A DNA stretch of 64,000 nt from NCBI GenBank assembly GCA_964548925.1, contig CAZJTM010000001.1:23826-87825 (forward strand), given 5' to 3'. Every line of letters begins with the position of its first letter. The first letter of the stretch is position 1. The translations under genes and the position numbers were made by a program. Source of the DNA: an uncultured Verrucomicrobiota bacterium. GTDB lineage: Bacteria; Verrucomicrobiota; Verrucomicrobiia; Limisphaerales; MWDV01. Below, in pieces: positions 37,110 to 55,707 of the stretch. Below the pieces are notes generated by a model that was given only the letters and a program-made list of their open reading frames with translations, was not told the origin of the DNA and searched no databases.

Positions 37110-37454
37110 ATGACAACGACGACGCTTGCTCCGACCGCGGCCATTCTGGCCTCAACCCGTTCCGTCCGTTCGGGCGTTCCGGCCACCCTCATCTCTGAGG
37201 CTTTGGCCGTGCTGGCGGCCCGCACTGCGGTCGCGCTGGATGCGTCCCTCACCCGCTTCCTGGCCGCGACCGATCAGAACCTGGGCCACCTCGAAACCGA
37301 GGCCGCCCACGCCGCGCAGGAACTGCTGCGCCCCGCCAACCAGCGCGCCGCTCAAGCCAAGGCCGACGCCGCGCCCCGCCGCACAGTCCTTTTCAGGCGC
37401 GCGGTTAGAAACCACCATGCGTATGCCATTACCCGATGGCTCGGCTGCCCTTGA
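37110..37454 (+). CDS. Hypothetical small Ala-rich protein (uncertain)
   Basis: 114-aa ORF from ATG 37110 with strong third-position G/C bias. It fills the 475-nt gap between rpsL and the kinase gene and overlaps the kinase 3' end by 26 nt. No motif and no convincing SD. Confidence 0.3.
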   Translation: MTTTTLAPTAAILASTRSVRSGVPATLISEALAVLAARTAVALDASLTRFLAATDQNLGHLETEAAHAAQELLRPANQRAAQAKADAAPRRTVLFRRAVRNHHAYAITRWLGCP

Positions 37455-39333
37455 GCAGATGCCGACGCAGGTGCCGCGCGTAGAGTTCACAAGGAAGGCG
37501 TGCCTCGGCCGGCGATTCGCCCGTGATCAAACCCGCGCTCCGCAGGCGCACGAACGCGCGGGCGTCCAGCCTCGCGGGCCCGGCCAGCACGTGCCGCATC
37601 GCCCCGGCCAGCGCCTCATCACTGTCCAGCAATGCCTGGGCTCGTTGCAGAGGGATTGCAAAAAGTTCCTCGTGCCAACCGTCTCGACGGGCCAACGGCA
37701 TCGGGGAGGCCGCGCGGCGCCGGGCCAATTCCAGCAAGGCATACCGGCAGAGAAAGGGCTGGCCGCCGACGAGCCCGTACAGGTCCTCCAATTCCGCCCG
37801 CGAGCCCAGCGGCGAACCGCAGCGACGATTCAATTCCGCCAGCTCCTCGATCGAGAACTCCCGCAACGTGATATGTTCGCCGAAATTCGGCCGCAGTTCG
37901 GTCGGCGCGGTCAGGATCAGCGTCAACTGCCCCAACGGGCCGCCGGGTTCGAGCGCGTGTTCGTTGCTCCAAGCCTGCACCAGACCACAAAACTCGTCGC
38001 GGAAGTCCCAATCTTGAATGCGACCAACCTCGTCCAACCCCCACGCCACGCGCCCGAAGCCCGCCGACAAAACCTCCCGGCGCAGATAGCGGTCGAAATT
38101 GACATTCGGCGACCGGCGCGGATCCCAGACCCGGCGCGGCGCCAACGGCAACCCGAGTTGATCCGCCAGCGATTCGCCGAGCGCGTGATAAAAGGCCTCC
38201 AGCGAGGCGAAGCTGGCAGTGTTGAACTTCTGCAAGTCCGTGCAGGCCACGCGGGCGCCCTCGCGCCGCGCCAGATGCAGCACCCGCGCCAGCAACGAAG
38301 TTCGCCCCGTCTGCGGCGCGCCGGAGATGAATACCAAGCCCTCGCGCCGCGCCCAGGCAGCCTCCAGCGTGGCGTCGGCTTCGCGCCGCACGTAGCTCGG
38401 CGAATCGGGCGGGACGGCGCCGTATGGAGATTCCTCGACCACAGTGGGCGCGATCGGATCGGTGACCGCCGGGCGCGGTGCGTCCTTGCGCCCCGCATTC
38501 ACATCATGGACCGGCAACAAGGCGCTGAGCGCCTCTCGCAGGGAGCGGGCCGAGGGGAGGCGGCGGCTCGGGTTCGCCTGTGTGGCTGCCTGAAGGATGT
38601 CGTAAAACTTGCGCTGGCGCTCGTCCTTGAGCCGCGGACGCAAGTCGGGCAAGGCGTCCGCCAGTTCCTGCACGTGGACGCCGCTGAACATTTCGTACAG
38701 CACCCGGCCAAAGCTGAACACATCCGCCGCCGGCCGCCCCGAGCCCTCCGGCGGATTGTAGCCAATGCTTCCCACGGGCGTGTCCTTGTGCCCCGCTGTG
38801 GCGACGGTGCCGATGTCCGCAAGCTTGGGCACTCCGTCCACATAAATCAGGTTCGCCGGCTTGAGGTCCCGATGCACCAATCCTCGGGCGTGCAGTTCCT
38901 CCAGCGCCAGCAGGAGCGTCTGCCCCAGCAACAGACACTCATCGAGCGGCAGGCGGCGGCGGCGGTCCAACTCGGCCCGCAACGTGCGTGGCTGATAACT
39001 GGCGGGCTGAATCTGCCGCCGATGCTGGAGATCGTCCGCCAACTCCATCACGTAGTAAAAGTGCCCTTCCGCGTCGTTGCGGCCCACGTGCAGGATTTGC
39101 ACAAAGCCCGGGTGCGAGCGCGAGATCGGCTCAAACTGGCGCACGCCCTCGAACTCGCGTTCATACTGGCGTGCCGACTTGAACGTGCGGCGCCGCACGA
39201 GCTTCACCGCCCGAAAGGCGCCGAAAACATTCCTCGCCAACCAGATGCTGCCGTAACTCCCCACGGCGATGCGCCGGATCAATCCGTGATCCGGAATCGG
39301 CGGCGGACCAGACTGGGTTGCACCGGGACTCAT
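37429..39333 (-). CDS. Ser/Thr protein kinase fused to a C-terminal AAA/STAND-like P-loop domain
   Basis: Kinase: IAVGSYGSIWLA (Gly loop), AVKLV (Lys), HRDLKPANL, and DIGTV (DFG variant). C-terminal: LVFISGAPQTGRTSLLARVL Walker A followed by a long helical region. ATG 39333 (MSPGAT...) is preferred; TTG 39381 is possible. Confidence 0.85.
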   Translation of the reverse strand: MSPGATQSGPPPIPDHGLIRRIAVGSYGSIWLARNVFGAFRAVKLVRRRTFKSARQYEREFEGVRQFEPISRSHPGFVQILHVGRNDAEGHFYYVMELADDLQHRRQIQPASYQPRTLRAELDRRRRLPLDECLLLGQTLLLALEELHARGLVHRDLKPANLIYVDGVPKLADIGTVATAGHKDTPVGSIGYNPPEGSGRPAADVFSFGRVLYEMFSGVHVQELADALPDLRPRLKDERQRKFYDILQAATQANPSRRLPSARSLREALSALLPVHDVNAGRKDAPRPAVTDPIAPTVVEESPYGAVPPDSPSYVRREADATLEAAWARREGLVFISGAPQTGRTSLLARVLHLARREGARVACTDLQKFNTASFASLEAFYHALGESLADQLGLPLAPRRVWDPRRSPNVNFDRYLRREVLSAGFGRVAWGLDEVGRIQDWDFRDEFCGLVQAWSNEHALEPGGPLGQLTLILTAPTELRPNFGEHITLREFSIEELAELNRRCGSPLGSRAELEDLYGLVGGQPFLCRYALLELARRRAASPMPLARRDGWHEELFAIPLQRAQALLDSDEALAGAMRHVLAGPARLDARAFVRLRSAGLITGESPAEARLPCELYARHLRRHLLKGSRAIG

Positions 39334-39722
39334 GCGGCGGAGACATGTCGCGGGATCACCGAATACGGTGATCCGTTCCAAGCGTGTCCACGACGACGCT
39401 TTGCGCCGCCGAACGCGCGCGGTCGAACCCTTGCGCCAAGCCCGGCGCGGGCAGTTGGGTGTTCGCTGTGGTTGCCGTCATGTGGATGGCGGGCAAGCAT
39501 AGGGGCATTTCCAGTCAATGCAAACGCCCGGCCAACCGGTCCCGCGCGGGTCACACGAGCCGCACGGGTGCCCCGTTGAACGGCAGCCCGTGGCCCGATG
39601 TGCCGGAGGCGCGGAGTCAATTCTCCCGCCTTTCGTCTAATAAACCGCCGCGCCGCGTGTCAGGATGATTGGAACAATGTCCTTTGCGGACCAACGCGCC
39701 GGGCGGATACAGTGAGCCAAGC

Positions 39723-40280
39723 ATGGCGGTGATGCCAACAGACCAGGCCAAAGCGGAATCGCCCGGTGGGGGAACGATTCAGGAGCTGTTTGCAGCCCTC
39801 GAAGCGCCGCTGCTCCATTACGCCCTGCGGCTCACCGGCGAGCGCGGCCCCGCGGAGGACATGGTTCAGGAAGCATTCATGAAACTCCACGCCCAGTTTG
39901 AGGAAGTGCGCGAGCCGAAACGCTGGCTCTACCGCACCGTCCACAACCTGGCCCTCAACCACCGCCGCGACGCCGCGAAAGTGGTTTCACTGAACCTCTC
40001 TGACCAGTCCGACCTGCCAGACTCATCCGACCCGTCCGACCCCCAGCCCCTCCCCGATGAACAAATCGCCCGTTGGGAGAGCATTGGCCTGGTGCGGCTC
40101 AGTCTGGAGACTTTGGACCCACGCAGCCGCGAACTGATCCGACTCAAGTTCAACGACGAACTCTCCTACCAACAAATCAGCGAGCGCACCGGCCTCAAGA
40201 CCGGCCACGTGGGCTACCTCCTGCACCACGCGCTCAAAACCATCGCCGCCGAACTGGCGAAAACGGGAGTCGTGCCATGA
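39723..40280 (+). CDS. ECF-type RNA polymerase sigma factor (sigma-70 regions 2 and 4)
   Basis: LLHYALRLTGERGPAEDMVQEAFMKLHAQ...WLYRTVHNLALNHRRD (region 2) and LRLKFNDELSYQQISERTGLKTGHVGYLLHHALKTI (region 4 HTH). ATG 39723. Confidence 0.88.
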   Translation: MAVMPTDQAKAESPGGGTIQELFAALEAPLLHYALRLTGERGPAEDMVQEAFMKLHAQFEEVREPKRWLYRTVHNLALNHRRDAAKVVSLNLSDQSDLPDSSDPSDPQPLPDEQIARWESIGLVRLSLETLDPRSRELIRLKFNDELSYQQISERTGLKTGHVGYLLHHALKTIAAELAKTGVVP

Positions 40281-40286
40281 AGAAGT

Positions 40287-40314
40287 GCGAACTGCGAAGT
40301 GCGAAGTGCGAAGT
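40287..40314. repeat. Heptanucleotide tandem array (4 x GCGAA(G/C)T), intergenic
   Basis: gcgaact|gcgaagt|gcgaagt|gcgaagt, immediately 5' of the family-A hairpin arm. Confidence 0.85.
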
Positions 40315-40319
40315 CACTC

Positions 40320-40459
40320 GTAGGACAGGCTTCCAGCCTGTCTCCATATTCGCCCTCTCCAGCCTCTCGCCGCAAAACGACCGACCGACAACTCGTCCCA
40401 GCGCGGCCCCGGTGAGGCGTCCCGACGCAAATTTGAGACAGGCTGGAAGCCTGTCCTAC
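40320..40459. repeat. Family-A palindromic element between the ECF sigma and anti-sigma genes
   Basis: gtaggacaggcttccagcctgtctcc (40320-40345), identical to the arm at 15834, and the perfect inverted copy gagacaggctggaagcctgtcctac (40435-40459). The loop is 89 nt. Confidence 0.9.
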
Positions 40460-40485
40460 GCACTGGTCTTTCGGCTTTCACGCTT

Positions 40486-40524
40486 CGGATTTGTTTCGGA
40501 TTTCGGATTTCGGATTTCGGATTT
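40486..40524. repeat. Heptanucleotide tandem array (5 x CGGATTT), intergenic
   Basis: cggattt gttt cggattt cggattt cggattt cggattt. It ends 15 nt before the anti-sigma ATG, and the GGGAGG SD lies between. Confidence 0.9.
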
Positions 40525-40539
40525 GCCGGGAGGCTACGC

Positions 40540-43500
40540 ATGAACCCGGAATCACCAAAGACACCTCGCGAAGCATTGGAGGCCCGCCTCACGGCGCTGC
40601 TGTTGAGCGAACTGTCCGCTGACGAAGCCGCGGCCGTCCGCCGCGCGCTGGCCCAAGACGCCGAACTCGCAAAGCTCCACGACCGTCTGCAAGCCACCAT
40701 CGGCCTTGTCCGCGAAACCGTCACGACCCAGGCCGAACCTGCTGCCGAGCAACCGCCGCTCAGGCTTTCCGATGAACGCCGGGAGCAGCTCCTAGCACAC
40801 TTCAAGACCGTTCCCCTGCTCCCAAAACTGGAGAATACCCAGAAGGTGAAGCGTTCGTGGCTCATGCCGATGAGCGTGGCTGCGTCGCTGGTGGCGCTGT
40901 TGGCCATCGCGGGCCTCTTGTTGAATCCTCCGCGCATAATGGAGGGCGTCGGGTCAGACATTGCTCAGGACGCCTATAGCCAGCAACGCCCATATACTGG
41001 CGTAGTCGCGGACACATCTCCGCCACCTGAAGTGGCTCCAGCCCCGCGCCGCAGTTCATCCATCGTGTTGCCGCCACTCAATGAAACCGCCGCTGGCGCA
41101 TCCGTTGCCGCCGCTCCTACTCCAGCGCCCGCGCAACGGGCAAGTTCAACCACTGTTTTATCGAGCGAAGGCAGATCCGAGCCGGAGGCACTGGTCAATG
41201 GCGTGGCGGCTGTGGCAGCCCCAGTTGATCCGGAGGCCTCGGCGTCCTCCAATGCGGATGACGGCGAAGCGACGGTCATGTTCCAACGCAGGTATGGATC
41301 CGCGACTGAACATGGTTCCCGGCCCAATCCGTCTGTTCAGAACCCGTCTGCCGTGGCACAAGAGCGGGCAGGCAGGGCAAAACTGGCCGAAGCCAGGCAC
41401 ACCAGTGAAGATATGGAAAGGGTGGGAGTCTCGGAACGCTCGGCACAGGCGCAGTCACAGGAAAACCGCTTTCTGGGGCGTTACGCTTACGATGCCAAAC
41501 CAGCGGGCAACGACGCCTTCGCCGCTGCCAAACCTGATTCGTGGTATTTCGACAATGACGGCAAAAGCCAGAGTGATTTCTCCGTTCGGCAGGAGGGCCG
41601 ATCCCCCGCGCTTTGGGACGACAACTCCGCGATCCGCGGGTTCTACAGTGTTTCTGATTCGCAGGACTTGTTTGCCAAGGAGGCTGGAGCCAACCGCAGT
41701 CAGGCCGGGCAGATTCAGGACTTGGCTGCCAAAGGCCGGGTTGAAGTGACCGTTGGCCAGACGGTCACGGGCCTGCCGACGCAAGCTGGGGCTGGCGTTG
41801 TTGTTCCGGCCGGCGTGGCTCACGATGGCTTCTATGGTGGTTACGCAGTGAACGCTCCCACGCCAGCGGCAGGCGCGATCATCGCCATCCCCGATCCCGG
41901 ACCAGCTTCCTTCGAAACACCCGGCAAGGCGGCCGCCGACAAGACTTTCACTCTGGGTGACACGCCTGAACTCGGGAGACAATTCTACCGGCTTGCGGAA
42001 GGCGGTGGGGGCGGTGTCGGCGGTGCTCAAATTCAACCTCCACGCCCCTCCGCCTCGCCCGCACCGCAGGCAGATTCCGGTGTTGCTGGCGCCGCAACTG
42101 CCGCGACCAAACGGGTCGAGCTGGTCCCGTTTGCCCCCCAACTCCCGGCTCCCACCCTGAAAGGCACGCCGGAAGACCTGCCCAAGGGACCGAACCTCGA
42201 ACCACTGGGAACAAAACCCGACGGCACGGTCGTCCTTGGCCGGCCTGAGGCGGCGTCAGCGGCACCAGACCCTGAGCTGTATGCCGCTTTCCGTCGCAGG
42301 TACGGAGTCGCGTCCGCCGACAAACCGCTCGCGGAGAGTGTCGCCAAACAACCCGTGTCTGCCGCCAAAGCGCCTGCGCTTGAGGGAACAATGCCCAACT
42401 CGAGCGTCGCCGCTGTGGAGTCGCCTGCCTTGGGTGAGGCAAAGGAATCCCCGTCCAGGGCCGGCCGTGGCATCACGCCGCTGGCCAGCGCGAGGAGCGG
42501 AAACGAACCGACACTCAGCGCTGGAAACCTGAACCTCCAATGGGCGGACAAGCATCACCAAAAGCAAGGCGGCGTTTCTTTGACGGAGTCGGAACGGAAG
42601 CAAGTCGCTGAACTGCGGGAACGGTATCTCGCCAATGGCCGGGAACCCACCGAAGGCGGACGCATCGCCCCCGCAGAGGAGGTTCAGAGCATGGATGTTG
42701 ATGCAGCCACCGTGACGACCACCGCCGGGAAGGGCGTCGGCGGCGTTGCGGTGGATGAAGCCACCCGTGGACAGCGGTCCGCCATCGCCCTGCCAACGAC
42801 AGAAACGGGCGTCGCTTTGGGGGTCGAGCGCGCGAAGACCGAGGAGTTGGCGCGGGCGCGGATTGTGCCGGAGCGCCGGTTGGCCGGCGGTGCAAAGGCC
42901 GAACCAGCGGCATCCCGAAGCGCCAAGCCCACTCAGGGCAGCTCAATAAACTACGAGGTGGCCACGCTTGCCAAGCTCAAGGAGGTTTCGCAGCAAATCT
43001 GGACTGACTATGACTCCGATGGTTTCCCGGATGCCTTTGGAACCGTAAAAAAGCTCGTGCCAACGCAGGCGTCTTCCGCAAGCGACATTGACGCACCGCC
43101 CGTTCGCAAGGCTTCCACCAACGCCCCGATTCCGCAGCCCGAAGTCCAGACGAGCGACAACGCCTTCTCCACCTTCTCGCTCAACGTCAGCGACGTGGCA
43201 TTCAAGCTCGCTGCGGCCAGCCTGGAGAAGGGCCAGATGCCGGACGCGGCCTCTGTGCGCGCCGAGGAGTTCATCAACGCCTTCGATTACCGCGATCCCG
43301 AAGCGCCGCCGGGTGTGCCGATCGCGTTCGCGTGGGAGCGCGCGCGGTATCCGTTCGCGCACAACCGCGATCTGCTGCGGTTCTCGCTCAAGACTGCCGC
43401 GGCGGGCCGGCAGGCGGGGCGTCCGCTGAACCTCGTGCTGCTGCTCGACAATTCCGGCTCGATGGAACGCGCCGATCGGGTGCAGATCATCCGCGAGGCG

Positions 43501-44466
43501 TTGCGTGTGCTCGCCGGGCAGTTGCAGCCGCAGGACAAGCTCAGCGTCATCACTTTCGCCCGCACACCGCGCCTGTGGGTGGACGGCGTGGCGGGCGACA
43601 AGTCGGGCGAGGTGCTGGAACAAGTCAGCGGCCTCACGCCGCAGGGCGGCACGAATCTGGAAGAGGCGATGAACCTCGCCTACGCCACGGCGCTGCGGCA
43701 TTACCTTGCCGGCGGCATCAACCGTGTGGTGCTGCTCACCGACGGCGCGGCGAACCTCGGCAACGTCGAGCCCGAACCCCTCAAGCAGAAGGTCGAGGCG
43801 CATCGCAAACAGGGCATCGCGCTGGATTGCTTCGGCATCGGCTGGGAGGGGTTCAACGATGATTTGCTCGAAGTCCTCTCGCGCAACGGCGATGGCCGTT
43901 ACGGGTTCATCAACTCACCGGACGAAGCCGCCAACGAGTTCGCCGGCCAGCTCGCGGGCGCGCTCAAGGTCGCGGCGTCGGACGTGAAGGTGCAGGTGGA
44001 GTTCAACCCGAAGCGCGTCACGGCGTATCGGCAGATCGGCTACGCCAAACATCAGCTCACGAAGGAGCAGTTCCGCGACAACACCGTGGACGCCGCTGAA
44101 ATCGCCGCGCAGGAAGCTGGCAACGCGCTTTACACCGTGGAGGTGAATCCCGCTGGCGAGGGCCCACTCTGCATCGTGCGCTGCCGGTTCAAGATCCCCG
44201 GCACGACGGATTATCGCGAGCACGAGTGGGCCGTGCCTTACACCGGCAACGCCGTGTCGCTGGAGCAAGCCAGTCCGGCCATGCGCCTTGCCGCGAGTGC
44301 CAGCGCGTTTGCCGAGTGGCTGGTGGTGAGCCCGTTTGCCGCTGAAGTCACGCCGGATGCGTTACTCGGCTACTTGAACGGCGTGTCGGAAACCTATGGC
44401 GCCGATGCGCGCCCGAAGAAGCTGGAGTGGATGATCCGTCAGGCGAAGAGCATTGGAGGGAAATGA
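40540..44466 (+). CDS. Membrane-anchored anti-sigma-like protein with a long low-complexity spacer and a C-terminal YfbK-type von Willebrand factor A module
   Basis: N-terminal helix LEARLTALLLSELSADEAAAVRRALAQDAELAKLHDRL (anti-sigma style) and TM helix WLMPMSVAASLVALLAIAGLLL. About 700 aa of Ala/Pro/Gly/Ser-rich sequence follow. C-terminal part: DNAFSTFSLNVSDVAF...EEFINAFDY, then VWA with MIDAS LLLDNSGSM (DNSGS = 43447-43461), and ...TDGAANLG. Confidence 0.85.
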   Translation: MNPESPKTPREALEARLTALLLSELSADEAAAVRRALAQDAELAKLHDRLQATIGLVRETVTTQAEPAAEQPPLRLSDERREQLLAHFKTVPLLPKLENTQKVKRSWLMPMSVAASLVALLAIAGLLLNPPRIMEGVGSDIAQDAYSQQRPYTGVVADTSPPPEVAPAPRRSSSIVLPPLNETAAGASVAAAPTPAPAQRASSTTVLSSEGRSEPEALVNGVAAVAAPVDPEASASSNADDGEATVMFQRRYGSATEHGSRPNPSVQNPSAVAQERAGRAKLAEARHTSEDMERVGVSERSAQAQSQENRFLGRYAYDAKPAGNDAFAAAKPDSWYFDNDGKSQSDFSVRQEGRSPALWDDNSAIRGFYSVSDSQDLFAKEAGANRSQAGQIQDLAAKGRVEVTVGQTVTGLPTQAGAGVVVPAGVAHDGFYGGYAVNAPTPAAGAIIAIPDPGPASFETPGKAAADKTFTLGDTPELGRQFYRLAEGGGGGVGGAQIQPPRPSASPAPQADSGVAGAATAATKRVELVPFAPQLPAPTLKGTPEDLPKGPNLEPLGTKPDGTVVLGRPEAASAAPDPELYAAFRRRYGVASADKPLAESVAKQPVSAAKAPALEGTMPNSSVAAVESPALGEAKESPSRAGRGITPLASARSGNEPTLSAGNLNLQWADKHHQKQGGVSLTESERKQVAELRERYLANGREPTEGGRIAPAEEVQSMDVDAATVTTTAGKGVGGVAVDEATRGQRSAIALPTTETGVALGVERAKTEELARARIVPERRLAGGAKAEPAASRSAKPTQGSSINYEVATLAKLKEVSQQIWTDYDSDGFPDAFGTVKKLVPTQASSASDIDAPPVRKASTNAPIPQPEVQTSDNAFSTFSLNVSDVAFKLAAASLEKGQMPDAASVRAEEFINAFDYRDPEAPPGVPIAFAWERARYPFAHNRDLLRFSLKTAAAGRQAGRPLNLVLLLDNSGSMERADRVQIIREALRVLAGQLQPQDKLSVITFARTPRLWVDGVAGDKSGEVLEQVSGLTPQGGTNLEEAMNLAYATALRHYLAGGINRVVLLTDGAANLGNVEPEPLKQKVEAHRKQGIALDCFGIGWEGFNDDLLEVLSRNGDGRYGFINSPDEAANEFAGQLAGALKVAASDVKVQVEFNPKRVTAYRQIGYAKHQLTKEQFRDNTVDAAEIAAQEAGNALYTVEVNPAGEGPLCIVRCRFKIPGTTDYREHEWAVPYTGNAVSLEQASPAMRLAASASAFAEWLVVSPFAAEVTPDALLGYLNGVSETYGADARPKKLEWMIRQAKSIGGK

Positions 44467-44478
44467 AAGCCGGAATCA

Positions 44479-44507
44479 AACCGCAGAGACGCGACAGGCG
44501 CAGAGAA
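44479..44507. repeat. Family-E repeat arm (AACCGCAGAGACGCGACAGGCGCAGAGAA), single copy 3' of the GxxExxY cassette
   Basis: One mismatch to the reverse complement of the arm at 45513-45541. Confidence 0.85.
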
Positions 44508-44555
44508 GGCACAGGCAGAACCTCCGCATACATCGCGCCGTTGCGGCTGAGCCCA

Positions 44556-45434
44556 TCAGCCGACCGCTGGCTTCGCGGATTTGCGAGAGAGAACAAGTCG
44601 GCGGATGCCGTGAGTGAGCCGGAGAGCATTGAAGTTGATCAGCAAGCCGAGCGGCCAGCCGCCGAGCCGGAGCTGGCTCAACACCTCGGCCTCGTGGACC
44701 GCGCGAACTTCAGCGAGTGCGCGTGGGTGGACCACGATGCGGCCCGCCACCAGCAGCTCCACCTCGTCCGGCTCTGGCAGGACGATGCCCTTGTAGCTCA
44801 GCGGGAGCGATTGTTTGCGCACAAACGGAACGCCGCGCAGATGCAATTCGTGGCAGAGACAGATCTCGTACGTGGACGGCAACAGTCCCGGGCCCAACTC
44901 CCGGAAGACCTCGGCGGCCGCGGCGAGCACTTGATCGGCCACGGCTTCCGTTTCGGCATCGCCGCAGTTCGCGGCGCATGCAGGGGCCGCACACTCGGAT
45001 CCAGCAGCGATCACTCTCTGCGTTTGTTGCATCTCTGCTGTTTCTCTCCCATCCTCCTCAAACCCCACCACCAACCGTTCAAGCCCGTCCTTCAACACCG
45101 CGGCATTGAAGTTGAGCAACAGGGCCAGTTTCCAGCCTCCCAGCTTCAGATAGGTAAGGACCTGCGCCCGATGCACCGGGTTCAACAACTCCACCGACTT
45201 CACTTCCAACACAACGGCCTGCTCAACGAGTACGTCGAGCCGATAACCACACTCCAACTTTACCCCCTTGTAGATGACGGGCACAGGCCTTTGAACCTGA
45301 TGCGCCAAGCCGCGGAGCGAAAGCTCATGAGCGAGGGCGTGTTCGTAAGCCGCCTCCGCTTTGCCGGGACCGAGTTCCCGGTGAACCTCAATGCCAGCGC
45401 CAATGATCTCGTGTGTGAGTTCGTTGGGTTTCAT
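44556..45434 (-). CDS. Tandem fusion of two GxxExxY-family (PD-(D/E)XK nuclease-fold) units
   Basis: Unit 1: IIGAGIEVHRELGPGKAEAAYEHALAHEL...YRLDVLVEQAVVLEVKSV. Unit 2: AAAAEVFRELGPGLLPSTYEICLCHEL...DEVELLVAGRIVVHPRAL (motif residues substituted). Single 292-aa ORF. The linker RETAEMQQTQR is encoded by a repeat arm (45014-45042). Confidence 0.8.
   Translation of the reverse strand: MKPNELTHEIIGAGIEVHRELGPGKAEAAYEHALAHELSLRGLAHQVQRPVPVIYKGVKLECGYRLDVLVEQAVVLEVKSVELLNPVHRAQVLTYLKLGGWKLALLLNFNAAVLKDGLERLVVGFEEDGRETAEMQQTQRVIAAGSECAAPACAANCGDAETEAVADQVLAAAAEVFRELGPGLLPSTYEICLCHELHLRGVPFVRKQSLPLSYKGIVLPEPDEVELLVAGRIVVHPRALAEVRAVHEAEVLSQLRLGGWPLGLLINFNALRLTHGIRRLVLSRKSAKPAVG
45014..45042. repeat. 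Family-E repeat arm (reverse orientation) forming the linker between the two GxxExxY units
   Basis: ctctctgcgtttgttgcatctctgctgtt matches 24 of 29 positions of ttctctgcgtctgtcgcgtctctgcggtt (45513-45541). Confidence 0.7.
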
Positions 45435-45467
45435 GGGCGCAGACTAGCTCCAGGGCAGGGCTTCGTA

Positions 45468-45541
45468 AACCGCAGAGACGCGATGAACGCGGAGAAGATG
45501 AGGGGTCGTGTTTTCTCTGCGTCTGTCGCGTCTCTGCGGTT
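45468..45541. repeat. Family-E palindromic hairpin element, intergenic (5' of the GxxExxY cassette, 28 nt before the giant ORF)
   Basis: aaccgcagagacgcgatgaacgcggagaa (45468-45496) and ttctctgcgtctgtcgcgtctctgcggtt (45513-45541). 29-nt inverted arms with a 16-nt loop. Confidence 0.9.
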
Positions 45542-48500: not shown

Positions 48501-51500
48501 GTGGAGGTTGCGAACGCGGCTGATCAAACCTCGGCGGGTGAGTACTTCGGATACGGTTGGCCGGCACTGTTGGGGATTGCGGTGTGGGCCTTTGGCTGGG
48601 TTTCCGTCGAGCAACGCGTGAAGACGGCGAGTTGGCTGCTCGGCTGGACGCTGGCGGCGTGGGCGGCGCTCCGCTGGCCCAATGGTGCGCCGTGGTTCAT
48701 CGCGGTCATCGGCGCGTTCCTCGCGCTGCACGTCGTGCTGCCTGGCTTGCGACGGCTCCTGTCGCTGCCGAAAGAAATGACAGCGAGAATCGGAACCGCG
48801 CCCGCTGCCGCCTCGGTCGCGCTGCTAACTCTGCTTCCCCTCTGCGTTTGTCGCGCCTCTGCGGTTCCACCGGACGGGGCGCCACCGGGTTCAACCGCAG
48901 AGACGCGACAGATGCAGAGGAAAGAGCCGCCAGCCGCGGCGCTCGCCGAGAAGGTTGCGCAGCAGATTCGCGTCGAAGACCAGTTCGCTCTCGCCACCGC
49001 GAAGATTCGCTGGAACGCCGAGAAAGGTCAGACACTGCCGCTGCTCTGCGATCCCGCCGTTTTGACTCACATCAGTCTTCCGGCCAAAGCGCTCAAGCTC
49101 GTGTCCTCGCAGGCCGGCGAACGGCGGGTGCAGGCGTTGCGCGCGGAACGAAGCGGGACATTCGATGTGGAGGTACAATACCAGTTGCCGGTGGCCAAGA
49201 AAGACAACGAGCGCGGCCTCGCGCTGCCGACCCACGCGGGCCTCGTCAACGAACTCGAACTCACGCTCGTCAATCTCGACGTGGACGTGTTCTCGCCGCG
49301 GGCCGTGACCCTCAAGCGCGAGGCGGCGGGCGGCAACACGATTGCGAAGGTGGTGCTCGCACCGGGCGAGACGTGGATCGGCTGGAGACCGCGCAGCCGG
49401 GACGTGAAGAGCGAGAAGCCAGTGTTCTACGCGGAACTGCACCAACTCTACGTGCCCTCGGCGGGAGTGATCGAGGGCGTGCATGTTGCAGCCCTCCGGC
49501 CGGCGCAAGGAGAGTTGGGCGAGTTGGTGTTCGACGTTCCCAAGGGCGCGACGGTGACAGATGTGACCGACACGGCTGACACGGTCGGAAACTCGAAATC
49601 CGAAACTCGAAATGCGAAGTCGGCCGTGGCCCTCTGGCGCTTTGATCCCGACACACGGAAGCTGCGCGTGAATCTGAGCCAGCCGCAGTCGCGTCCGTTC
49701 ACACTCGTGATTCGCTCGCAAGTCGCCACCGGGCCGCTGCCGTTTGAGCAAGCGGTCGGCTTGGTTGCCGTCGAGGGCACGGCGAGTCAGATCGGCTTGC
49801 TGGCCGTGGCGACGGGGAATGAAGTCCAGCTCGACACCGTGGGTGCGGAAGCGTTTTCGCCAATCAACCTGGAAGACTTCCCGGGCGCGGTCGCGCAACG
49901 ACTCGCCCCGCAGATTCCGGGACTCACCGTGCGTCGCGCCTTCCGCTACGCGGACCCGAAGGCCACCGCCGCTGTAAAGGCGTCGCCCGTCGAGCCGGAC
50001 GTGCGCGTCGAGACGCAGGACACCCTCTCGCTGGGCGAAGATCGAATTGTCCTCGCGGCGAACCTGACGGTGGACATCACGCGCGCGGGGATTTTCCGAC
50101 TGAGTTTCGTCCTGCCGGCGGGCCTGGACGTGGAGGCCATCAGCGGGCCGGCGTTGAGCCATTGGACGGAAGCAAACAGCGACGCCACGCGCATCATCAC
50201 ACTCCATCTGCGCGGCAAAACGATCGGGCAACAGACCTTCGCCATCAGCCTCGCCGGGCCGGGGATGAAGACGGCAAACGGTTGGGCGGTGCCCCAACTC
50301 GTCTTGCGCGAGGCAAGCAAGCAGCGGGGCACGCTGCTGGTGGTGCCGGAGCAAGGATTGCGTTTGCAGGTGGCCGCGCGCGACGGCGTCACGCAGCTTG
50401 ACCCGCAGAAGTCCGGCATCCGGCAAAAGGGCGTGCTGGCGTTCCGCGTGTTGCAGACGCCGTGGAAGCTTGCTCTCGATCTCGAACAGGTGGACCCGTG
50501 GATTCAGGTGACGAGCCTGCAACACGCGACGGCGAGCGAGGCGCAGGTGAAGATCACCGCGAATCTGCAATACCAGATCGAGAACACGGGCCTGAAGGCG
50601 TTTCGCGTCTGGCTGCCAGCGAATGCCGAGGGCGTGCGTTTCCAGGGCGAGCAGGTTTCCGATTTCCTGCCGGAGGCCGGCGCGGTCACGAACGGCTTGC
50701 AGTTGTGGGAAGTGAAACTGCACCGCCGCGTGATTGGCCAGTATCTGCTGCAAGCGAGTTACCAGACGCTCCTGCCGGATCAAGCATCGGAGACGACCCT
50801 GCGCGGTGTGCAGGCGGCGGAGGTGAATCTCCAGCGCGGCTTTGTGACAGTGCAGGCGGGCGGGCGATTGGAAGTGAGCGTCGCATCCACGCCCGCCGCG
50901 CTTCAGCCCACCGAGTGGCAGAGCATTCCCCGCGCGCTCCAGCAGGATTGGTCGGCGGTTTCGGCCACTCTCGCCTATCGCCTCGTTGAGCCGGCGTTCC
51001 AACTCCCGCTGAAACTCGGCCGTTACGAAGCCGCCAAACTCCTGCCCGCGCGCGTCCATGGCGTCACGTTCACCTCGGTGATTTCCGACGACGGCGTCAT
51101 GCTTACCCAAGTGCGACTGGAGATGATGCCCGGCGACAAGCGGCTGCTCCATGTGACTTTGCCAAAGGACGCGAAGTTCTGGTTTGCGTTCGTCAATCAG
51201 AACGGCGTCTGGCCCTGGCGCGAACAGGATCGGATTCTGATTCCGTTGGAGCAGCAATCCCGCGGCGGCAAACCGGTGCCCGTCGAGGTGTTCTACAGCA
51301 GCCAGATCGGCAAGTCCGGTTCGAGCGCGCTGGATTTGCAACTCGCCGCGCCGAAGTTCGATCTGCCGCTGGAGAACATCGCATGGCGGGTTTTTCTCAA
51401 CGAGAAATGGCAGCTTGCGAACTGGGCGGGCACCCTTCAGTTGCAGGAGGAGCAAATTGTCCCACGCGCCGCCGCCGTGGACCTGCAAACCTATTTGCAG

Positions 51501-52130
51501 AGCGAAGCCCTCGGGCAGCGCGCGAAGACCCAGGAAGCCGAGGAGATGCTCGCGATGGGAAACACGCTGCTGGAAAAGGGCGATCCGCAGCAGGCCCGCC
51601 GCGCGTTCCAAGCCGCCTACGGCTTGAGCCAGGGCGACGACGCATTCAACGAGGACGCGCGGGTGCAGCTCAACAACCTGAAGCTCCAACAGGCGCTCGT
51701 GGGCTTGAACGTGCGCCAAGCCGCCGCGACGGGCGAGGCAGCGACCCCGGCGGCGAAGCTCCGCGACACCCGGGGCCGCAAGGACGTCGGCTACACACAA
51801 CAGGACGCCAAGGCGATCATTGACCGCAACAGCGCCGAGGAGAACGCCGCCTTCATGCGACTGGCGCAGCGGTTGGTGCAACAACAGGACGCCGCCGTGA
51901 GCAGTCCCGCCGCCCTGCGCGCCGCGATTCCCGAGCACGGCCGTTTGCTCACATTCAAGCGTGCGGTGGTCGTGGACAAGGAAGCGGACCTGCACATTGG
52001 ACTCCAAGCCAGTGCCGTCCGACCCGTCTCGTTGAGCGCGCGGATGCTGATCCTGGCGGGCACAGTGCTGGTGTTGTTTGGGTTTGGGTGGTTGGGGCGA
52101 GGCTTTATACGCGCGAGGGCCTCAGTGTAA
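45570..52130 (+). CDS. Giant (2186 aa) envelope protein of unknown function: signal peptide, two large beta-rich halves separated by a cluster of about 6 TM helices, a C-terminal TPR-like/coiled region and a terminal TM anchor
   Basis: Signal peptide MKTRLAVFLSYLALIARAVAGA. TM cluster at about 48250-48855 (ALVALLAGLALLAVGSIVWRW, FCGVTLGLVALGLSVVAFINL, WPALLGIAVWAFGWVSV, ASWLLGWTLAAWAALRW, PWFIAVIGAFLALHVVLPGL, AASVALLTLLPLCV). TPR-like AEEMLAMGNTLLEKGDPQQARRAFQAAYGL and final TM helix MLILAGTVLVLFGFGWLG. Uninterrupted ORF with consistent codon bias. Confidence 0.85.
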   Translation: MKTRLAVFLSYLALIARAVAGAEPPASTNQQLPAVTLQDFKLVGDLKDDRASFTLTANAKVENSKGGSLELLSGTVALTGVNTNPKWRVRVEQGRFVLTFDRSGTFPIQIKFDAAVRQSDGWSAVDFRIAPSALQPVTLQGLAEDTQFQFVGAARPERKGSDFVSYLPSDGSVKLSWKAARTEAEGKLFYAAEMLSQISVSPGLMRQVALLDGKIMQGEMTRLALLLRGAGEVTRVQGEAVLAWKVENLHTLQSVEAPPPASSERRLIVQFNQPQKAGFALQVQMQTPLDAFPQSVEALQVHPEGATRFAGCYRVVNDGAVRLEVAQASGLSQISPEQFPETDATKAAFRAGGSQRFAYRFSGADHALRIQADQVQPEVGVSQVLAYHLGENEQAIDSEFELDIREAPLRELLLRVPKGYAIARLNASGLSDYFLSEPLTPSLSPSDAERVAEGRVRGDFDQNELRLVFGQPISGRQVVQLRLERNAALGQATWTLPRLEVSQAKSVRGHIAVSAEAGFRLTAERTHALTEIATAFFPRKVAGIQSAFRLSEAAWDATMRVERLPQTVQADALHLFSIGEGIAYGSSLINYVISGAPVALFRVELSEEYPSVEFTGKDIRGYQRTTNGYVVQLHTPVSGAYTLLATYERPFKRQGETLAFTGARPLDAQSEQGHTLVISAYQFDVKRAQVSPNLLPLETGEVPPEYRLFFDAPILAAFRYTSRPFALQLALSPLAQGDSLSQIVDRASLVTRISKEGQVLTDASYLVKSRGNPNFRLTLPAGTELWSATVNGASVVPVKDKDANLIPLPQRADPNAVLKLDLKLAAKSANASRVKVAAPIVNAPVMLAEWKLSPDAGQRLVYRSGSLTPAGGVPDVSGFAGLTRLFTGRHQSEALVALLAGLALLAVGSIVWRWTCQDGVVKFSARYFCGVTLGLVALGLSVVAFINLADLAERQQCYPPNDVTFLAPVQQPNSELSVEVANAADQTSAGEYFGYGWPALLGIAVWAFGWVSVEQRVKTASWLLGWTLAAWAALRWPNGAPWFIAVIGAFLALHVVLPGLRRLLSLPKEMTARIGTAPAAASVALLTLLPLCVCRASAVPPDGAPPGSTAETRQMQRKEPPAAALAEKVAQQIRVEDQFALATAKIRWNAEKGQTLPLLCDPAVLTHISLPAKALKLVSSQAGERRVQALRAERSGTFDVEVQYQLPVAKKDNERGLALPTHAGLVNELELTLVNLDVDVFSPRAVTLKREAAGGNTIAKVVLAPGETWIGWRPRSRDVKSEKPVFYAELHQLYVPSAGVIEGVHVAALRPAQGELGELVFDVPKGATVTDVTDTADTVGNSKSETRNAKSAVALWRFDPDTRKLRVNLSQPQSRPFTLVIRSQVATGPLPFEQAVGLVAVEGTASQIGLLAVATGNEVQLDTVGAEAFSPINLEDFPGAVAQRLAPQIPGLTVRRAFRYADPKATAAVKASPVEPDVRVETQDTLSLGEDRIVLAANLTVDITRAGIFRLSFVLPAGLDVEAISGPALSHWTEANSDATRIITLHLRGKTIGQQTFAISLAGPGMKTANGWAVPQLVLREASKQRGTLLVVPEQGLRLQVAARDGVTQLDPQKSGIRQKGVLAFRVLQTPWKLALDLEQVDPWIQVTSLQHATASEAQVKITANLQYQIENTGLKAFRVWLPANAEGVRFQGEQVSDFLPEAGAVTNGLQLWEVKLHRRVIGQYLLQASYQTLLPDQASETTLRGVQAAEVNLQRGFVTVQAGGRLEVSVASTPAALQPTEWQSIPRALQQDWSAVSATLAYRLVEPAFQLPLKLGRYEAAKLLPARVHGVTFTSVISDDGVMLTQVRLEMMPGDKRLLHVTLPKDAKFWFAFVNQNGVWPWREQDRILIPLEQQSRGGKPVPVEVFYSSQIGKSGSSALDLQLAAPKFDLPLENIAWRVFLNEKWQLANWAGTLQLQEEQIVPRAAAVDLQTYLQSEALGQRAKTQEAEEMLAMGNTLLEKGDPQQARRAFQAAYGLSQGDDAFNEDARVQLNNLKLQQALVGLNVRQAAATGEAATPAAKLRDTRGRKDVGYTQQDAKAIIDRNSAEENAAFMRLAQRLVQQQDAAVSSPAALRAAIPEHGRLLTFKRAVVVDKEADLHIGLQASAVRPVSLSARMLILAGTVLVLFGFGWLGRGFIRARASV
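48839..48920. repeat. Family-E palindromic hairpin element inside the giant CDS
   Basis: cctctgcgtttgtcgcgcctctgcggtt (48839-48866) and aaccgcagagacgcgacagatgcagagg (48893-48920). Translated as ...PLCVCRASAVPPDGAPPGSTAETRQMQRK... Confidence 0.88.
49587..49621. repeat. Heptanucleotide tandem array (5 units, CGAAA(C/T)N type) inside the giant CDS
   Basis: ggaaact|cgaaatc|cgaaact|cgaaatg|cgaagtc. Translated as GNSKSETRNAKS. Confidence 0.85.
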
Positions 52131-52383: not shown

Positions 52384-55300
52384 ATGCGCCGACTTCTTCT
52401 GCTGCTTTGCTGGACCTGTGCTCTCTCCCTCCGCGCGGAAAGCCCTCGTGGCTACTACCGCTTCCCAGCCCTGCACGGCGAAACCATAGTTTTCACCGCC
52501 GAAGGCGACCTGTGGTCCGTGCCCGTCAGCGGTGGCAGCGCGCACCGGCTGACGTCGCACCCGGGCGAAGAGTCGCGCGCGGCGATTTCGCCGGACGGCC
52601 AGACGGTCGCCTTTACCGCGGAATACGAAGGGCCGCGGGAAGTTTATTCCATGCCGATCACCGGAGGCTTGCCCACGCGACATACCTTCGACGGCGCCGG
52701 CGCAACCGTCGTGGGCTGGACGCCGGACAAGCGCATCCTCTACGCGACCCGCGCGCATTCCACGCTGCCCAACGAGCAACTCGTGAGGCTGGATCCCATG
52801 ACTGGTCTTCAAGCCCTCCTGCCACTCGCCCAAGCCAGCGACGGTGCGTATGACGACGCAGGCCAGACGCTTTTCTTCACTCGGCTGCCATTTCAAGGCA
52901 GCAGCACCAAGCGCTATCAGGGCGGGACGGTTCAGAATCTGTGGCGGTTCGCGACTGGCGACACGGAGGCAGTCCCCCTGACGGCGGATTTCAAGGGCAC
53001 CAGCAAGAACGCGATGTGGTGGAACGGGCGCGTCTATTTCCTGAGCGACCGCGACGGCGTGATGAACCTCTGGTCCATGACGCCCGACGGCACCGACCTC
53101 AAACAACTCACTCAACACAAGGACTACGAAGTGAAGTCCGCTTCGCTCCAAGCCGGGCGGATCGTGTATCAGCAGGGCGCCGACTTGCGCCTCTATGACA
53201 TCGCCGCCAAGGCGGACAAACTCATTCCAATCACGCTGGTGACCGATTTCGACCAGACCCGCGAGAAGTGGGTAAGCAAACCGCTGGATTACCTCACGGC
53301 GGCTCACCTTTCCCCGAACGGCGACCGCGTGGTGCTCACCGCGCGCGGGCAGGTGTTCGTCGCGCCGGCGGAGCAAGGGCGCTTGGTGGAAATGCCGCGC
53401 AAGGCCGGGGTGCGCTATCGCCACGCCGCCTTTCTGCCCGATGGCAGGTCGCTGTTCGCGTTGTCCGACGAAACCGGCGAACTGGAATTCTGGAAACTCC
53501 CGGCCAATGGCGTCGGCAACCCGGAAGTACTGACTTCCGGCGGGAGCATTTTTCGCTTCGGCGGCCTCGCTTCGCCGGACGGCAAGTGGCTCGCGTGGCA
53601 GGACAAGAACCAACAGCTTTGGGTCTTCAACCTCGGCCAGAAGTCGCCGAAGCTCGTCGCCACCTCAACGATGCGCCAGTTCGGGGACATCGTGTGGTCG
53701 CCCGACAGCCAGTGGCTCGCTTACGTGCAAACCGCGACGAACACTTACAAGCAGATTCATCTCTACCGCCCCGCTGACGCCCAGCGCGGCACGGTGACCA
53801 GCGACCGCGTGGACAGCTTCAGCCCCGCGTGGTCGCCGGATGGCAAGTGGCTCTATTTCCTCTCGGATCGCCACCTGCGCTCGCTGGTTTCCAGCCCGTG
53901 GGGGCCGCGCCAGCCCGAGCCATTTTTCACGGAGACAACGAAGATTTATCACGTGGCGCTCACGCCGGGCTTGCGTTCGCCGTTCCGTCCCAAGGATGAA
54001 CTGGCTGACGCACCGAAGCCGGAAGCAAAGACGAAGAAACCCGCCAAGAAACCGGCAACCAAAGCGCCCAGAGCCGCGGATGCCAAAGAAGCCGCGGTGA
54101 AATCCAGCAAGCCGGCCAGCCCCGAAACCAATCAGACTGCGGTCGTCAAAGTGACCATCGAACTCGCCGGCCTGCCAGGCCGCATCGAGGAAGTGCCCGT
54201 GCCGCCGGGCAATTACGAGGACCTCGCCGTCACAGCGAAGCACGTGTTCTGGACAGCGCAAGACACCGGTTTCGATACCAAACGCCACTTGCAGCAGTTG
54301 GAGATCACCAACACCGAACCGAAAGCCAAGGCGCTGGTCGAGGATATCCGCAGCTACGAACTGTCGCTGGATCGCAAGAAATTCCTGATCCGCAAAGGAG
54401 ACGCCTTTTACGTCATCCCCTCGGATAGCGCCGCGCCCGCGAAGCTGGACGAAAAACAGGTCAAGTTGGGCGGCTGGACTTTCGCCCTGCAACCGCGCGA
54501 GGAATGGCGGCAGATCTTCACCGAGTCCTGGCGCATGATCCGCGATTACTTCTACGACCGGAATCTGCATCACGTGGACTGGCCAGCCATGCGCGCGAAG
54601 TATCTGCCGCTGGTGGATCGCGTGAGCGACCGCGCCGAGCTAAACGAGGTCATCGCCGAGATGGTCGCCGAGCTCTCGACGCTGCACATGTTCGTGCGCT
54701 ACGGCGATCAACGCGCCGGGCCGGACCAGATCAAACCCGCCGCGTTGGGCGCGCGGTTCGTGCGCGACGAGCCGGCCGGCGGCTGGCGCGTCGAGCACGT
54801 TTATCAAAACGACCCTGATTATCCCGAGAGCCTCTCGCCACTCGCCCGCCCCGGGGTGGACGTGAAGAACGGCGACGTGCTGTTGCGCATCAACGGCGTC
54901 GCCACGCTCGGCGTCAGCGACCCGGAGAAACTGCTGCGCGCCCAAGCTGGAAAGCAGGTTCTGCTGGAGGTGAAATCGCCGGGCGAGAAAACGCCGCGCC
55001 AGGTCATCGTCAAACCCATCACCCCCGAGCAGGAAGCCGACCTGCGCTACGATGAATGGGAATACACGCGGCGGCTGGAGGTCGAGAAGCTCGGCCAGGG
55101 CCAGATCGGCTATGTCCATTTGCGGGCGATGGGGGCGGCGAATATCGCGGAGTGGGCGCGCCATTTCTACCCCATTTTCCAGCGGCAGGGCCTGATCATT
55201 GACGTGCGCCACAACCGCGGCGGGAACATTGACAGTTGGATTCTGGGCCGGCTGTTGCGCAAGGCGTGGTTCTACTGGCAGCCACGTGTGGGCGATCCGA

Positions 55301-55707
55301 CCTGGAACATGCAATACGCGTTCCGTGGGCACGCCGTCGTGCTCTGCAACGAGCGCACCGCCAGCGACGGCGAGGCCTTCAGCGAAGGCTTCCGCCGGCT
55401 CGGGCTCGGCAAGGTCATCGGCACGCGCACGTGGGGTGGCGAAATCTGGCTCTCCGCCGACCGCTGGCTCGTGGATAGCGGCATGGCGACCGCCGCCGAA
55501 ATCGGCGTGTACGGCCCCGAGGGCGCGTGGCTGATCGAGGGCCACGGCGTGGACCCGGACCTCGTGGTGGACAACCTCCCGCACGCGACCTTCAAGGGCG
55601 GCGATGCTCAGCTTGAAGCCGCAGTGAAGCACCTGCGGGAACTCATCGCGCAAGACCCACGCCCGGTTCCGCCCACGCCGAAACACCCGGACAAGTCGTT
55701 CAAGTAG
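52384..55707 (+). CDS. Tricorn-like protease (TolB-type beta-propellers + PDZ + S41 peptidase core), secreted
   Basis: Signal peptide MRRLLLLLCWTCALSLRA then YYRFPALHGETIVFTAEGDLWSV. Repeated SPDG motifs (SPDGQTVAF, SPNGDRVVL, SPDGKWLAW, SPDSQWLAY, SPDGKWLYF). S41 core GLIIDVRHNRGGN and VVLCNERTASDGEAF. ATG 52384 is preferred; ATG 52360 is possible. Confidence 0.88.
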   Translation: MRRLLLLLCWTCALSLRAESPRGYYRFPALHGETIVFTAEGDLWSVPVSGGSAHRLTSHPGEESRAAISPDGQTVAFTAEYEGPREVYSMPITGGLPTRHTFDGAGATVVGWTPDKRILYATRAHSTLPNEQLVRLDPMTGLQALLPLAQASDGAYDDAGQTLFFTRLPFQGSSTKRYQGGTVQNLWRFATGDTEAVPLTADFKGTSKNAMWWNGRVYFLSDRDGVMNLWSMTPDGTDLKQLTQHKDYEVKSASLQAGRIVYQQGADLRLYDIAAKADKLIPITLVTDFDQTREKWVSKPLDYLTAAHLSPNGDRVVLTARGQVFVAPAEQGRLVEMPRKAGVRYRHAAFLPDGRSLFALSDETGELEFWKLPANGVGNPEVLTSGGSIFRFGGLASPDGKWLAWQDKNQQLWVFNLGQKSPKLVATSTMRQFGDIVWSPDSQWLAYVQTATNTYKQIHLYRPADAQRGTVTSDRVDSFSPAWSPDGKWLYFLSDRHLRSLVSSPWGPRQPEPFFTETTKIYHVALTPGLRSPFRPKDELADAPKPEAKTKKPAKKPATKAPRAADAKEAAVKSSKPASPETNQTAVVKVTIELAGLPGRIEEVPVPPGNYEDLAVTAKHVFWTAQDTGFDTKRHLQQLEITNTEPKAKALVEDIRSYELSLDRKKFLIRKGDAFYVIPSDSAAPAKLDEKQVKLGGWTFALQPREEWRQIFTESWRMIRDYFYDRNLHHVDWPAMRAKYLPLVDRVSDRAELNEVIAEMVAELSTLHMFVRYGDQRAGPDQIKPAALGARFVRDEPAGGWRVEHVYQNDPDYPESLSPLARPGVDVKNGDVLLRINGVATLGVSDPEKLLRAQAGKQVLLEVKSPGEKTPRQVIVKPITPEQEADLRYDEWEYTRRLEVEKLGQGQIGYVHLRAMGAANIAEWARHFYPIFQRQGLIIDVRHNRGGNIDSWILGRLLRKAWFYWQPRVGDPTWNMQYAFRGHAVVLCNERTASDGEAFSEGFRRLGLGKVIGTRTWGGEIWLSADRWLVDSGMATAAEIGVYGPEGAWLIEGHGVDPDLVVDNLPHATFKGGDAQLEAAVKHLRELIAQDPRPVPPTPKHPDKSFK

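Follow-up and report, generated by a model that had tools for sequence, protein, structure and literature searches.

A 64,000-nucleotide stretch of DNA from an uncultured Verrucomicrobiota bacterium (the window; contig CAZJTM010000001.1 of assembly GCA_964548925.1) carries, in succession on its plus strand, genes for an extracytoplasmic function (ECF) sigma factor (39723-40280), a 1308-residue anti-sigma-like protein (40540-44466), and a giant protein of 2186 residues (45570-52130). These three genes, the trio, are the subject of this report, and comparison with relatives has shown that they constitute one conserved unit across the Verrucomicrobiota and at least one planctomycete. A preliminary description, made from the sequence alone, had proposed a five-gene unit that also took in a minus-strand Ser/Thr kinase gene on one side of the trio and the gene for a tricorn-like protease on the other, with a GxxExxY gene lying between the anti-sigma and giant genes. 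All six genes are present at the coordinates used in this report and with the domains that had been named for them, and the domain matches, obtained by listing open reading frames (ORFs) and their translations and then scanning Pfam and NCBIfam, are far above chance. The G+C content of the window is about 64% throughout.

Conservation of the trio and its proteins

Conservation was assessed in a sample of 155 loci, all searched with the window's proteins, with 67 taken from one genome per species, 80 from metagenomes, and the rest from single look-ups. Loci were treated as informative when they offered at least 2.5 kb of upstream sequence for the anti-sigma gene, at least 7 kb upstream for the sigma and kinase genes, and at least 4 kb downstream for the tricorn gene. 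The anti-sigma gene, which encodes a von Willebrand A (VWA) domain, immediately precedes the giant gene in 101 of the 105 informative loci, and the ECF sigma gene is found upstream of this pair in 69 of 74. In several of the loci with no sigma gene in range, multi-kilobase insertions separate the anti-sigma gene from the giant gene (e.g., L009 and L069). It had also been predicted that the giant gene would directly follow the anti-sigma gene wherever the GxxExxY cassette is absent, and this arrangement is indeed seen in relatives. When flanking ORFs were clustered, only the sigma, anti-sigma and giant families proved to be conserved, and the next real cluster occurred in no more than five loci; one cluster, shared by ten loci, seems to represent an ORF running antisense to the sigma gene.

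The arrangement also persists at considerable evolutionary distance. A metagenome scan aimed at distant relatives yielded only relatives of 57-77% identity, and the distant contexts come from single look-ups. These show the trio retained at giant-protein identities as low as 24-33%, including isolate DG1235 (29-33%), three distant representatives (L156, L157, and L158; 24-30%), Roseibacillus persicicus, and the planctomycete isolate SH139 (Planctomycetaceae), where the middle gene encodes a vWF_A-VWA-YfbK_C module 45% identical to that of the window. The part of the five-gene proposal that stood is therefore the adjacency of the sigma, anti-sigma and giant genes in nearly all informative loci, while the kinase gene (0 of 74) and the tricorn gene (1 of 95) fell away. 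Among relatives, no part of the trio is better conserved than the VWA module, which has a median best-segment identity of 77% as compared with 68% for the sigma factor and 64% for the giant protein.

The sigma factor has a conventional ECF composition, with Pfam matches to Sigma70_r2 (E=2e-12) and Sigma70_r4_2 (E=7e-10), no match to region 3, and a TIGR02937 match (E=5e-25) of 88 bits against a cut-off of 42.9. The protein encoded downstream appears to begin with a class I anti-sigma domain (residues ~1-95), followed by a single membrane helix (~107-128), a periplasmic linker of ~730 residues, and a C-terminal module matching vWF_A, VWA, and YfbK_C in Pfam (residues 868-1308, nt 43141-44463). 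The linker is of low complexity (61% A/P/G/S/T/E/Q), and orthologues vary in overall length between 714 and 1732 residues. The metal-ion-dependent adhesion site (MIDAS) DNSGS is present in the VWA domain and can be read as LLLDNSGSM in the translation. A Pfam scan of the window's protein returned no anti-sigma-domain match; its N-terminus aligns with those of distant orthologues that keep a zinc-binding HxxxCxxC motif, the cysteines of which have been replaced in the window's lineage. Because the gene order is conserved, the N-terminus aligns with these HxxxCxxC orthologues, and the orthologue in L157 has a weak zf-HC2 match, the 1308-residue protein is assigned as a single-pass class I anti-sigma factor, with sigma binding predicted.

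The giant protein has a bipartite layout. A signal peptide (residues 1-21, by hydropathy) leads into an N-module (residues 22-890, nt 45633-48239), a cluster of membrane helices (residues 892-1096, nt 48243-48857), and a C-module (residues 1100-1960, nt 48867-51449), and these are followed by a helical tail carrying an invariant AFNEDARVQ motif (residues 1970-2150) and a C-terminal membrane anchor (residues 2153-2171), the cluster and anchor again being recognized by hydropathy. The internal duplication noted in the preliminary description was borne out, with residues 56-867 aligning to residues 1143-1956 at 23% identity (E=4e-39). The central cluster contains four strong and two weak membrane helices, and both modules are predicted to face the periplasm, joined by about six helices, because the positive charges of the short loops fit such a topology.

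Relatives of this protein are abundant. More than 1000 homologues occur in one database, the best 120 of which are 64-97% identical and mostly full length, and an exhaustive HMMER search of 1.84 billion cluster representatives returned 2433 relatives at E<=1e-3, of which 552 reach E<=1e-30. Relatives as little as 24% identical still have the two-module size of 2100-2400 residues, and best-segment identities of 57-82% in the sample of roughly 150 loci from genomes and metagenomes point to strong purifying selection. All named homologues are hypothetical proteins, mostly from Verrucomicrobiota (Pedosphaera, Limisphaerales, and Chthoniobacter), and the named HMMER relatives are likewise hypothetical and belong to Verrucomicrobiota (including Akkermansiaceae and Roseibacillus) and Planctomycetota. 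The earlier remark that the protein has no recognized family also held: Pfam and NCBIfam scans of the giant itself gave no family, no consistent Pfam family emerged from 43 diverse homologues (sets of 22 and 21), and a family profile gave no credible match to PDB sequences. Stray Pfam matches among homologues were confined to a marginal TPR_2 (E=0.047), TgpA_N (E=0.16), and accessory LysM domains. Many homologues possess an extra N-terminal segment of ~220-250 residues that is missing from the window's protein (e.g., P0023 and P0051), and this extension carries LysM in 3 of 21 homologues (P0124 and two others, at about residues 312-354) and Laminin_G_3 in some. Such carbohydrate-binding additions would fit a periplasmic, cell-wall-facing protein. 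A 2105-residue ORF at 5334-11651 on the minus strand was considered as a paralogue of the giant and rejected, as it encodes a true bacterial alpha-2-macroglobulin (A2M) with no sequence similarity to the giant protein.

Structure prediction suggests what the two modules may look like. The AlphaFold2 model of the C-terminal half, with a mean predicted local distance difference test (pLDDT) score of 85, shows about eight beta-sandwiches, some with strands of 23-25 residues, and then long helical hairpins that carry AFNEDARVQ, the most conserved motif of the family, followed by a small beta unit and the membrane helix. The N-module model is poor (pLDDT 59) but is also all-beta, so that the C-module model is the main structural basis for the conclusion that the giant is built from two paralogous arrays, each of ~850 residues, of beta-sandwich domains. 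Foldseek searches of the PDB with both modules placed Ost1/ribophorin I at the top (E 1e-10 to 4e-8), followed by the legs of integrin alpha chains; the N-module also matched M1-aminopeptidase N-domains and ITIH1, and the C-module A2M-family chains. The luminal domain of Ost1/ribophorin I, the integrin alpha legs, and the macroglobulin (MG) domains of A2M are likewise membrane-anchored chains of beta-sandwiches, but a sequence-level relationship to the giant was not found, and the modelled fold is best regarded as showing an architectural resemblance rather than homology or a shared function.

Two palindromic repeats, resembling repetitive extragenic palindromes, lie in frame within the giant ORF. 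The one at 48851-48908 has the arms TCGCGCCTCTGCGGTT and AACCGCAGAGACGCGA and forms a predicted hairpin with a free energy (dG) of -47.6 kcal/mol; in the protein, it corresponds to the linker that follows the sixth membrane helix. The other, at about 46884-46960, encodes LTPSLSPSDAERVAEGRVRGD, a loop of the N-module that is missing in most homologues. The repeat's 16-mer occurs five times in the window as compared with 0.09 expected.

A conserved element upstream of the sigma gene

The gap of 389 nt between the kinase and sigma genes (39334-39722) contains a candidate promoter/leader element at 39613-39682 on the plus strand, recognized by comparison with relatives using a regular expression and a position weight matrix (PWM). 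In the window, the element consists of GGAGTCAA (39613-39620), a 13-nt spacer, CGTCTAATAAAC (39634-39645), an 11-nt spacer, and GTGTCAGG (39657-39664), with a third block ending in ACAATGTCC, and it ends about 40 nt before the ATG of the sigma gene. The tripartite consensus across loci is (GGAGCAA-N15-)TTTCGTCTAAGAAAC, N11, GGTGTCATA, N7-8, TGAGACACGATGTCC. As a regular expression, the motif TCTAAGAAAC-N11-GTGTC was present upstream of the sigma gene in 72 of 83 loci, and the same expression had just three plus-strand and eight minus-strand matches elsewhere in 2.7 Mb. A PWM built from the loci of 35 relatives matched the 64-kb window once, at 39622-39647 upstream of the sigma gene, with a score of 31.6-33.7 and a next best of 11.4. 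A general scan for sigma-70 promoters and terminators gave no more sites than shuffled sequence.

A shared ECF motif had been suggested to precede 39723, 45570, and 52384 alike; in the window, it was found upstream of the first of these, the sigma gene, only. The best PWM scores upstream of the anti-sigma gene (-10.7) and the tricorn gene (-2.0) fall below 2.2, the 95th percentile of random 280-nt windows. The gap between the sigma stop codon and the first possible anti-sigma start (40281-40539) is 259 nt in the window, as compared with 0-130 nt in many relatives, and is free of the motif.

Other lineages tie the element to the giant gene more directly. A second copy of the motif occurs between the anti-sigma and giant genes in four loci (L014, L016, L036, and L055), and all three blocks are present in the second copies of L016, L036, and L055, the sequences inspected. 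The giant gene would thus carry the sigma factor's own control element, or share it through co-transcription. Most other lineages have a short, motif-free gap between the two genes (less than 350 nt in about half of the measured loci), which fits co-transcription. From these sequence comparisons, the giant gene is the only conserved candidate target of the sigma factor.

The pair GGAGCAA-N15-CGTC has canonical ECF spacing and the pair AAC-N13-GTC does not, and the -35 and -10 blocks are candidates only. Moreover, the conserved region (39646-39682 in the window, and the same region in 35 loci) runs well beyond a normal promoter, comprising an invariant GTGTC and the third block TGAnACACGATGTCC, both of which recur in front of the giant gene in L016, L036, and L055. 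RNAalifold predicted no base pairs in 23 leader sequences, which indicates that the leader blocks are sequence motifs rather than structured RNA. Because neither a consensus RNA structure nor an Rfam match (in 33-58.5 kb of the window) was found, the extended element may act as the operator of a further regulator.

A proposed signalling operon and its rivals

The regulatory half of the trio belongs to a type that has already been catalogued. In the ECF classification of Casas-Pastor et al. (2021, PMC7826278), group ECF289 is described as having a +1 anti-sigma gene in which DUF3520 (now YfbK_C) is fused to a von Willebrand A domain. The trio shares this architecture of a sigma gene followed by an anti-sigma gene with VWA and YfbK_C, a match that concerns the description of the anti-sigma factor and not the clade of the sigma factor. 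The main text on ECF289 names neither a function nor a conserved +2 gene (PMC7826278), and it is the present analysis that adds the conserved giant cargo and the promoter motif. A second useful comparison is the FecI-FecR-FecA system, where a sigma factor and a single-pass anti-sigma factor with a periplasmic sensor are likewise followed by a large envelope protein as the regulated target. In FecI-FecR-FecA, the large envelope protein is also the signalling partner of the anti-sigma factor, a role that can only be proposed here by analogy. The third protein of the trio differs, however, in being a predicted inner-membrane beta-sandwich giant rather than an outer-membrane barrel; an N-terminal signalling domain was not found, and Pfam gave no FecR, Plug, TonB_dep_Rec, or STN match in the anti-sigma or giant proteins.

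Release of the sigma factor by regulated proteolysis is known from other class I anti-sigma factors. On balance, we consider it probable that the trio is an autoregulated three-gene envelope-signalling operon in which the giant protein is both the conserved output and the probable partner sensed by the VWA domain. In such an operon, the anti-sigma factor would keep the sigma factor at the membrane for as long as its VWA/MIDAS detects no change in the envelope; once such a change is registered, the sigma factor would be freed, probably by proteolysis as in other class I systems, and would raise transcription of its own operon and hence of the giant gene. If the VWA domain contacts the giant protein itself, much as the periplasmic domain of FecR contacts the FecA transducer, the loop could report back on how much of the giant is present or on its state, and the acidic, invariant AFNEDARVQ motif near the giant's C-terminal anchor would be a candidate ligand for the MIDAS. 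The giant is probably the partner that the VWA domain senses, and contact is favoured because the adjacency of the two genes is kept across phyla, the VWA is the most conserved part, and no other conserved partner is encoded. A bolder version, which we regard as rather unlikely, is that the trio represents a previously unrecognized, phylum-spanning envelope machine of the Planctomycetes-Verrucomicrobia-Chlamydiae (PVC) group, where a giant scaffold of ribophorin-like or integrin-leg-like beta-sandwiches would fill the periplasm and its assembly state would be read by the tethered VWA/MIDAS, with NEDAR as the ligand. Were this true, an integrin-like, metal-dependent contact between proteins would serve as the input of an ECF pathway.

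Several observations weigh against the proposed operon. In the window, an opposite-strand GxxExxY cassette with strong flanking hairpins splits the anti-sigma gene from the giant gene, and no copy of the motif was found upstream of the latter (best PWM score -8.5); given the antisense cassette, the hairpins, and the missing copy, co-transcription in the window's own genome is uncertain. The AAC-to-GTC spacing of 13 nt is shorter than in canonical ECF promoters, and a distant giant homologue (L071, 26% identity) has neither a sigma nor an anti-sigma gene adjacent to it. As for the protein itself, two of the six central membrane helices are weakly hydrophobic, and the Foldseek matches are local, with template-modelling (TM) scores of 0.1-0.3 and identities of 8-12%.

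A further possibility, which we hold with less assurance, is that the operon is the same and the giant is its regulated output only, for instance an envelope scaffold or repair protein, and that VWA/YfbK_C makes no contact with the giant but senses some other cue, which might be a metal ion, a component of the peptidoglycan or outer membrane, or an external ligand. Synteny and a shared motif would indeed demonstrate co-regulation and not contact, and the long, variable tether implied by anti-sigma lengths of 714-1732 residues could allow the VWA domain to reach distant layers of the envelope. In addition, ECF20, described as the source of some ECF289 members, is described as having also yielded the metal-stress groups ECF281, ECF290, and ECF291 (PMC7826278). 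Strict adjacency down to ~25% identity and across phyla would nonetheless be rare for mere membership of a regulon, and flanking-ORF clustering revealed no other conserved target or ligand-related gene; nor is a metal-resistance gene conserved nearby, the copper ATPase downstream in the window not being conserved. The present data cannot separate contact between VWA and giant from a giant that is output only.

Two other explanations place the sigma factor in more familiar company. Kinase-associated ECF groups typically lack an anti-sigma factor. The window does possess a divergent Ser/Thr kinase gene beside its ECF sigma gene, and the earlier five-gene model, in which the kinase would act on the sigma factor and the tricorn protein would serve as an effector or else cleave the anti-sigma factor, could draw on this and on the adjacency of the genes in the window and in one 97%-identical contig (from anti-sigma through tricorn only). 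Kinase-linked ECF groups have certainly been described, with the kinase conserved in the neighbourhood of ECF43, ECF59-62, ECF217, ECF267, and ECF283 (PMC7826278). In contrast, the kinase is adjacent in none of the 74 informative loci here and tricorn in one of 95, relatives at 73-82% identity already lack both, and the shared motif was not found upstream of either gene. The kinase-linked model also does not fit since the trio, unlike the kinase-regulated groups, has a conserved cognate class I anti-sigma factor, and we regard the five-gene unit as barely credible. Scarcely more probable is the view that the giant belongs with known beta-sandwich envelope systems, such as the Bat operon (BatA-E), an A2M-like trap, or a surface adhesin, and that its link to the sigma factor is incidental. 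The Bat operon also places a membrane-anchored VWA protein beside a large, anchored, beta-rich periplasmic protein with TPR-like helices; the giant's VWA partner, TPR-like tail (marginal TPR_2, as above), and anchor resemble these parts, and integrin alpha legs, A2ML1, and CD109 are among the weaker Foldseek matches. The VWA protein of the trio is, however, an anti-sigma factor, and no Bat gene was conserved in the trio's flanks by ORF clustering, including MoxR or DUF58 genes. None of the 43 family members matched BatD (at E<=1 or E<=0.01), BatA, MoxR, and DUF58 were not matched either, and the NCBIfam match to BatA reached 22.9 bits against a cut-off of 380. Pfam matches to A2M, MG, or adhesin families were similarly absent from the 22 and 21 members even at E<=1, and the giant has no MG, bait-region, or thioester-domain (TED) match, all of which are found in the true A2M of the window, a protein unrelated to the giant in sequence. 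A secreted adhesin is also made less likely by the seven predicted membrane helices. As the defining features looked for were not found, the sequence comparisons place the trio outside the kinase-linked ECF systems, FecIRA, the Bat operon, and A2M.

The signalling frame of the trio is an ordinary one, and what is newly added is that this type of regulator is tied to one specific, strictly conserved target of ~2100-2400 residues that has no family assignment. In the literature searched, we found no functional study of the locus tags or of YfbK-type anti-sigma factors, no published function or signal for an ECF sigma factor with a VWA/DUF3520 anti-sigma factor, and no account of a conserved link to a giant unassigned family or of the shared motif. 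The carriers belong to Verrucomicrobiota and Planctomycetota, phyla whose envelope biology is poorly understood, and since names can be put to the target and the sigma factor, to a candidate promoter, and to cultured carriers (DG1235, R. persicicus, and SH139), the system is testable. The kinase and the tricorn protease, attractive as they looked, have meanwhile been set aside as false leads.

Neighbouring genes and the GxxExxY cassette

The kinase-AAA_35, GxxExxY, and tricorn-like genes are lineage-specific neighbours that lie outside the system. On both sides of the trio, different neighbours are already seen in L015, P0004, and P0005, where giant identity is 82%, 75%, and 73%, respectively, and other genes occupy the position upstream of sigma in relatives. 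The kinase gene (37429-39333, minus strand) encodes a Ser/Thr kinase (Pkinase, E=7e-20) fused to the STAND-like domain AAA_35 (E=9e-41). The kinase retains HRD, with DFG replaced by DIG and APE by PPE; the Walker A motif of AAA_35 reads GAPQTGRTS, and the NTPase may be degenerate because Arg replaces Lys in this motif. The best NCBIfam match of the protein is the MADS6 antiphage kinase, at 68.9 bits, far under the cut-off of 460. The sole kinase match near any giant locus is an unrelated dCache kinase in L071, a locus with no sigma gene; on that 8.8-Mb contig (about 4873-16645), the dCache-domain Ser/Thr kinase lies ~3 kb upstream of the giant homologue, with toxin-antitoxin-like genes in between.

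On the other side of the trio, the features ascribed to a secreted tricorn-type S41 protease at 52384-55707 (plus strand) were all matched, namely beta-propellers (PD40, E=1e-23), Tricorn_C1 (E=1.6e-23), the Tricorn PDZ domain (PDZ_Tricorn, E=2.5e-16), and the S41 catalytic domain (Peptidase_S41, E=5e-25). The start may instead lie at 52348, as called in L072, the single locus with a tricorn-like protease downstream of the giant gene. The giant protein of L072 is 97% identical to that of the window, and this locus also possesses the GxxExxY cassette.

The GxxExxY cassette between the anti-sigma and giant genes proved to be real, and its strand is minus. One 292-residue ORF (44556-45434) encodes a two-domain GxxExxY protein of the PD-(D/E)XK-like kind (TIGR04256, E=7e-69). 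The cassette is bracketed by 34-nt inverted repeats (44479-44512 and 45508-45541) that are 91% complementary, with a hairpin beside it at 45468-45541 (dG -55 kcal/mol) and a degenerate copy of the repeat between the two domains of the gene. Although most relatives lack the cassette, the same junction is occupied in L025, L072, L089, and L141. Since L025, L089, and L141 are more distant relatives (60-66% identity) that have GxxExxY genes at the junction and closer relatives do not, recurrent insertion of GxxExxY genes at this site is suggested.

Judging from translations, rpsL, rpsG, and fusA lie upstream of the kinase gene, which sits between rpsL and the sigma gene, and a copper-type P-type ATPase gene lies downstream of the tricorn-like protease gene. 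Elsewhere in the window are genes for a Prc/Tsp tail-specific S41 protease (29228-31762, minus strand) and a hybrid histidine kinase with receiver, GAF, and PAS domains (61388-63445, plus strand).

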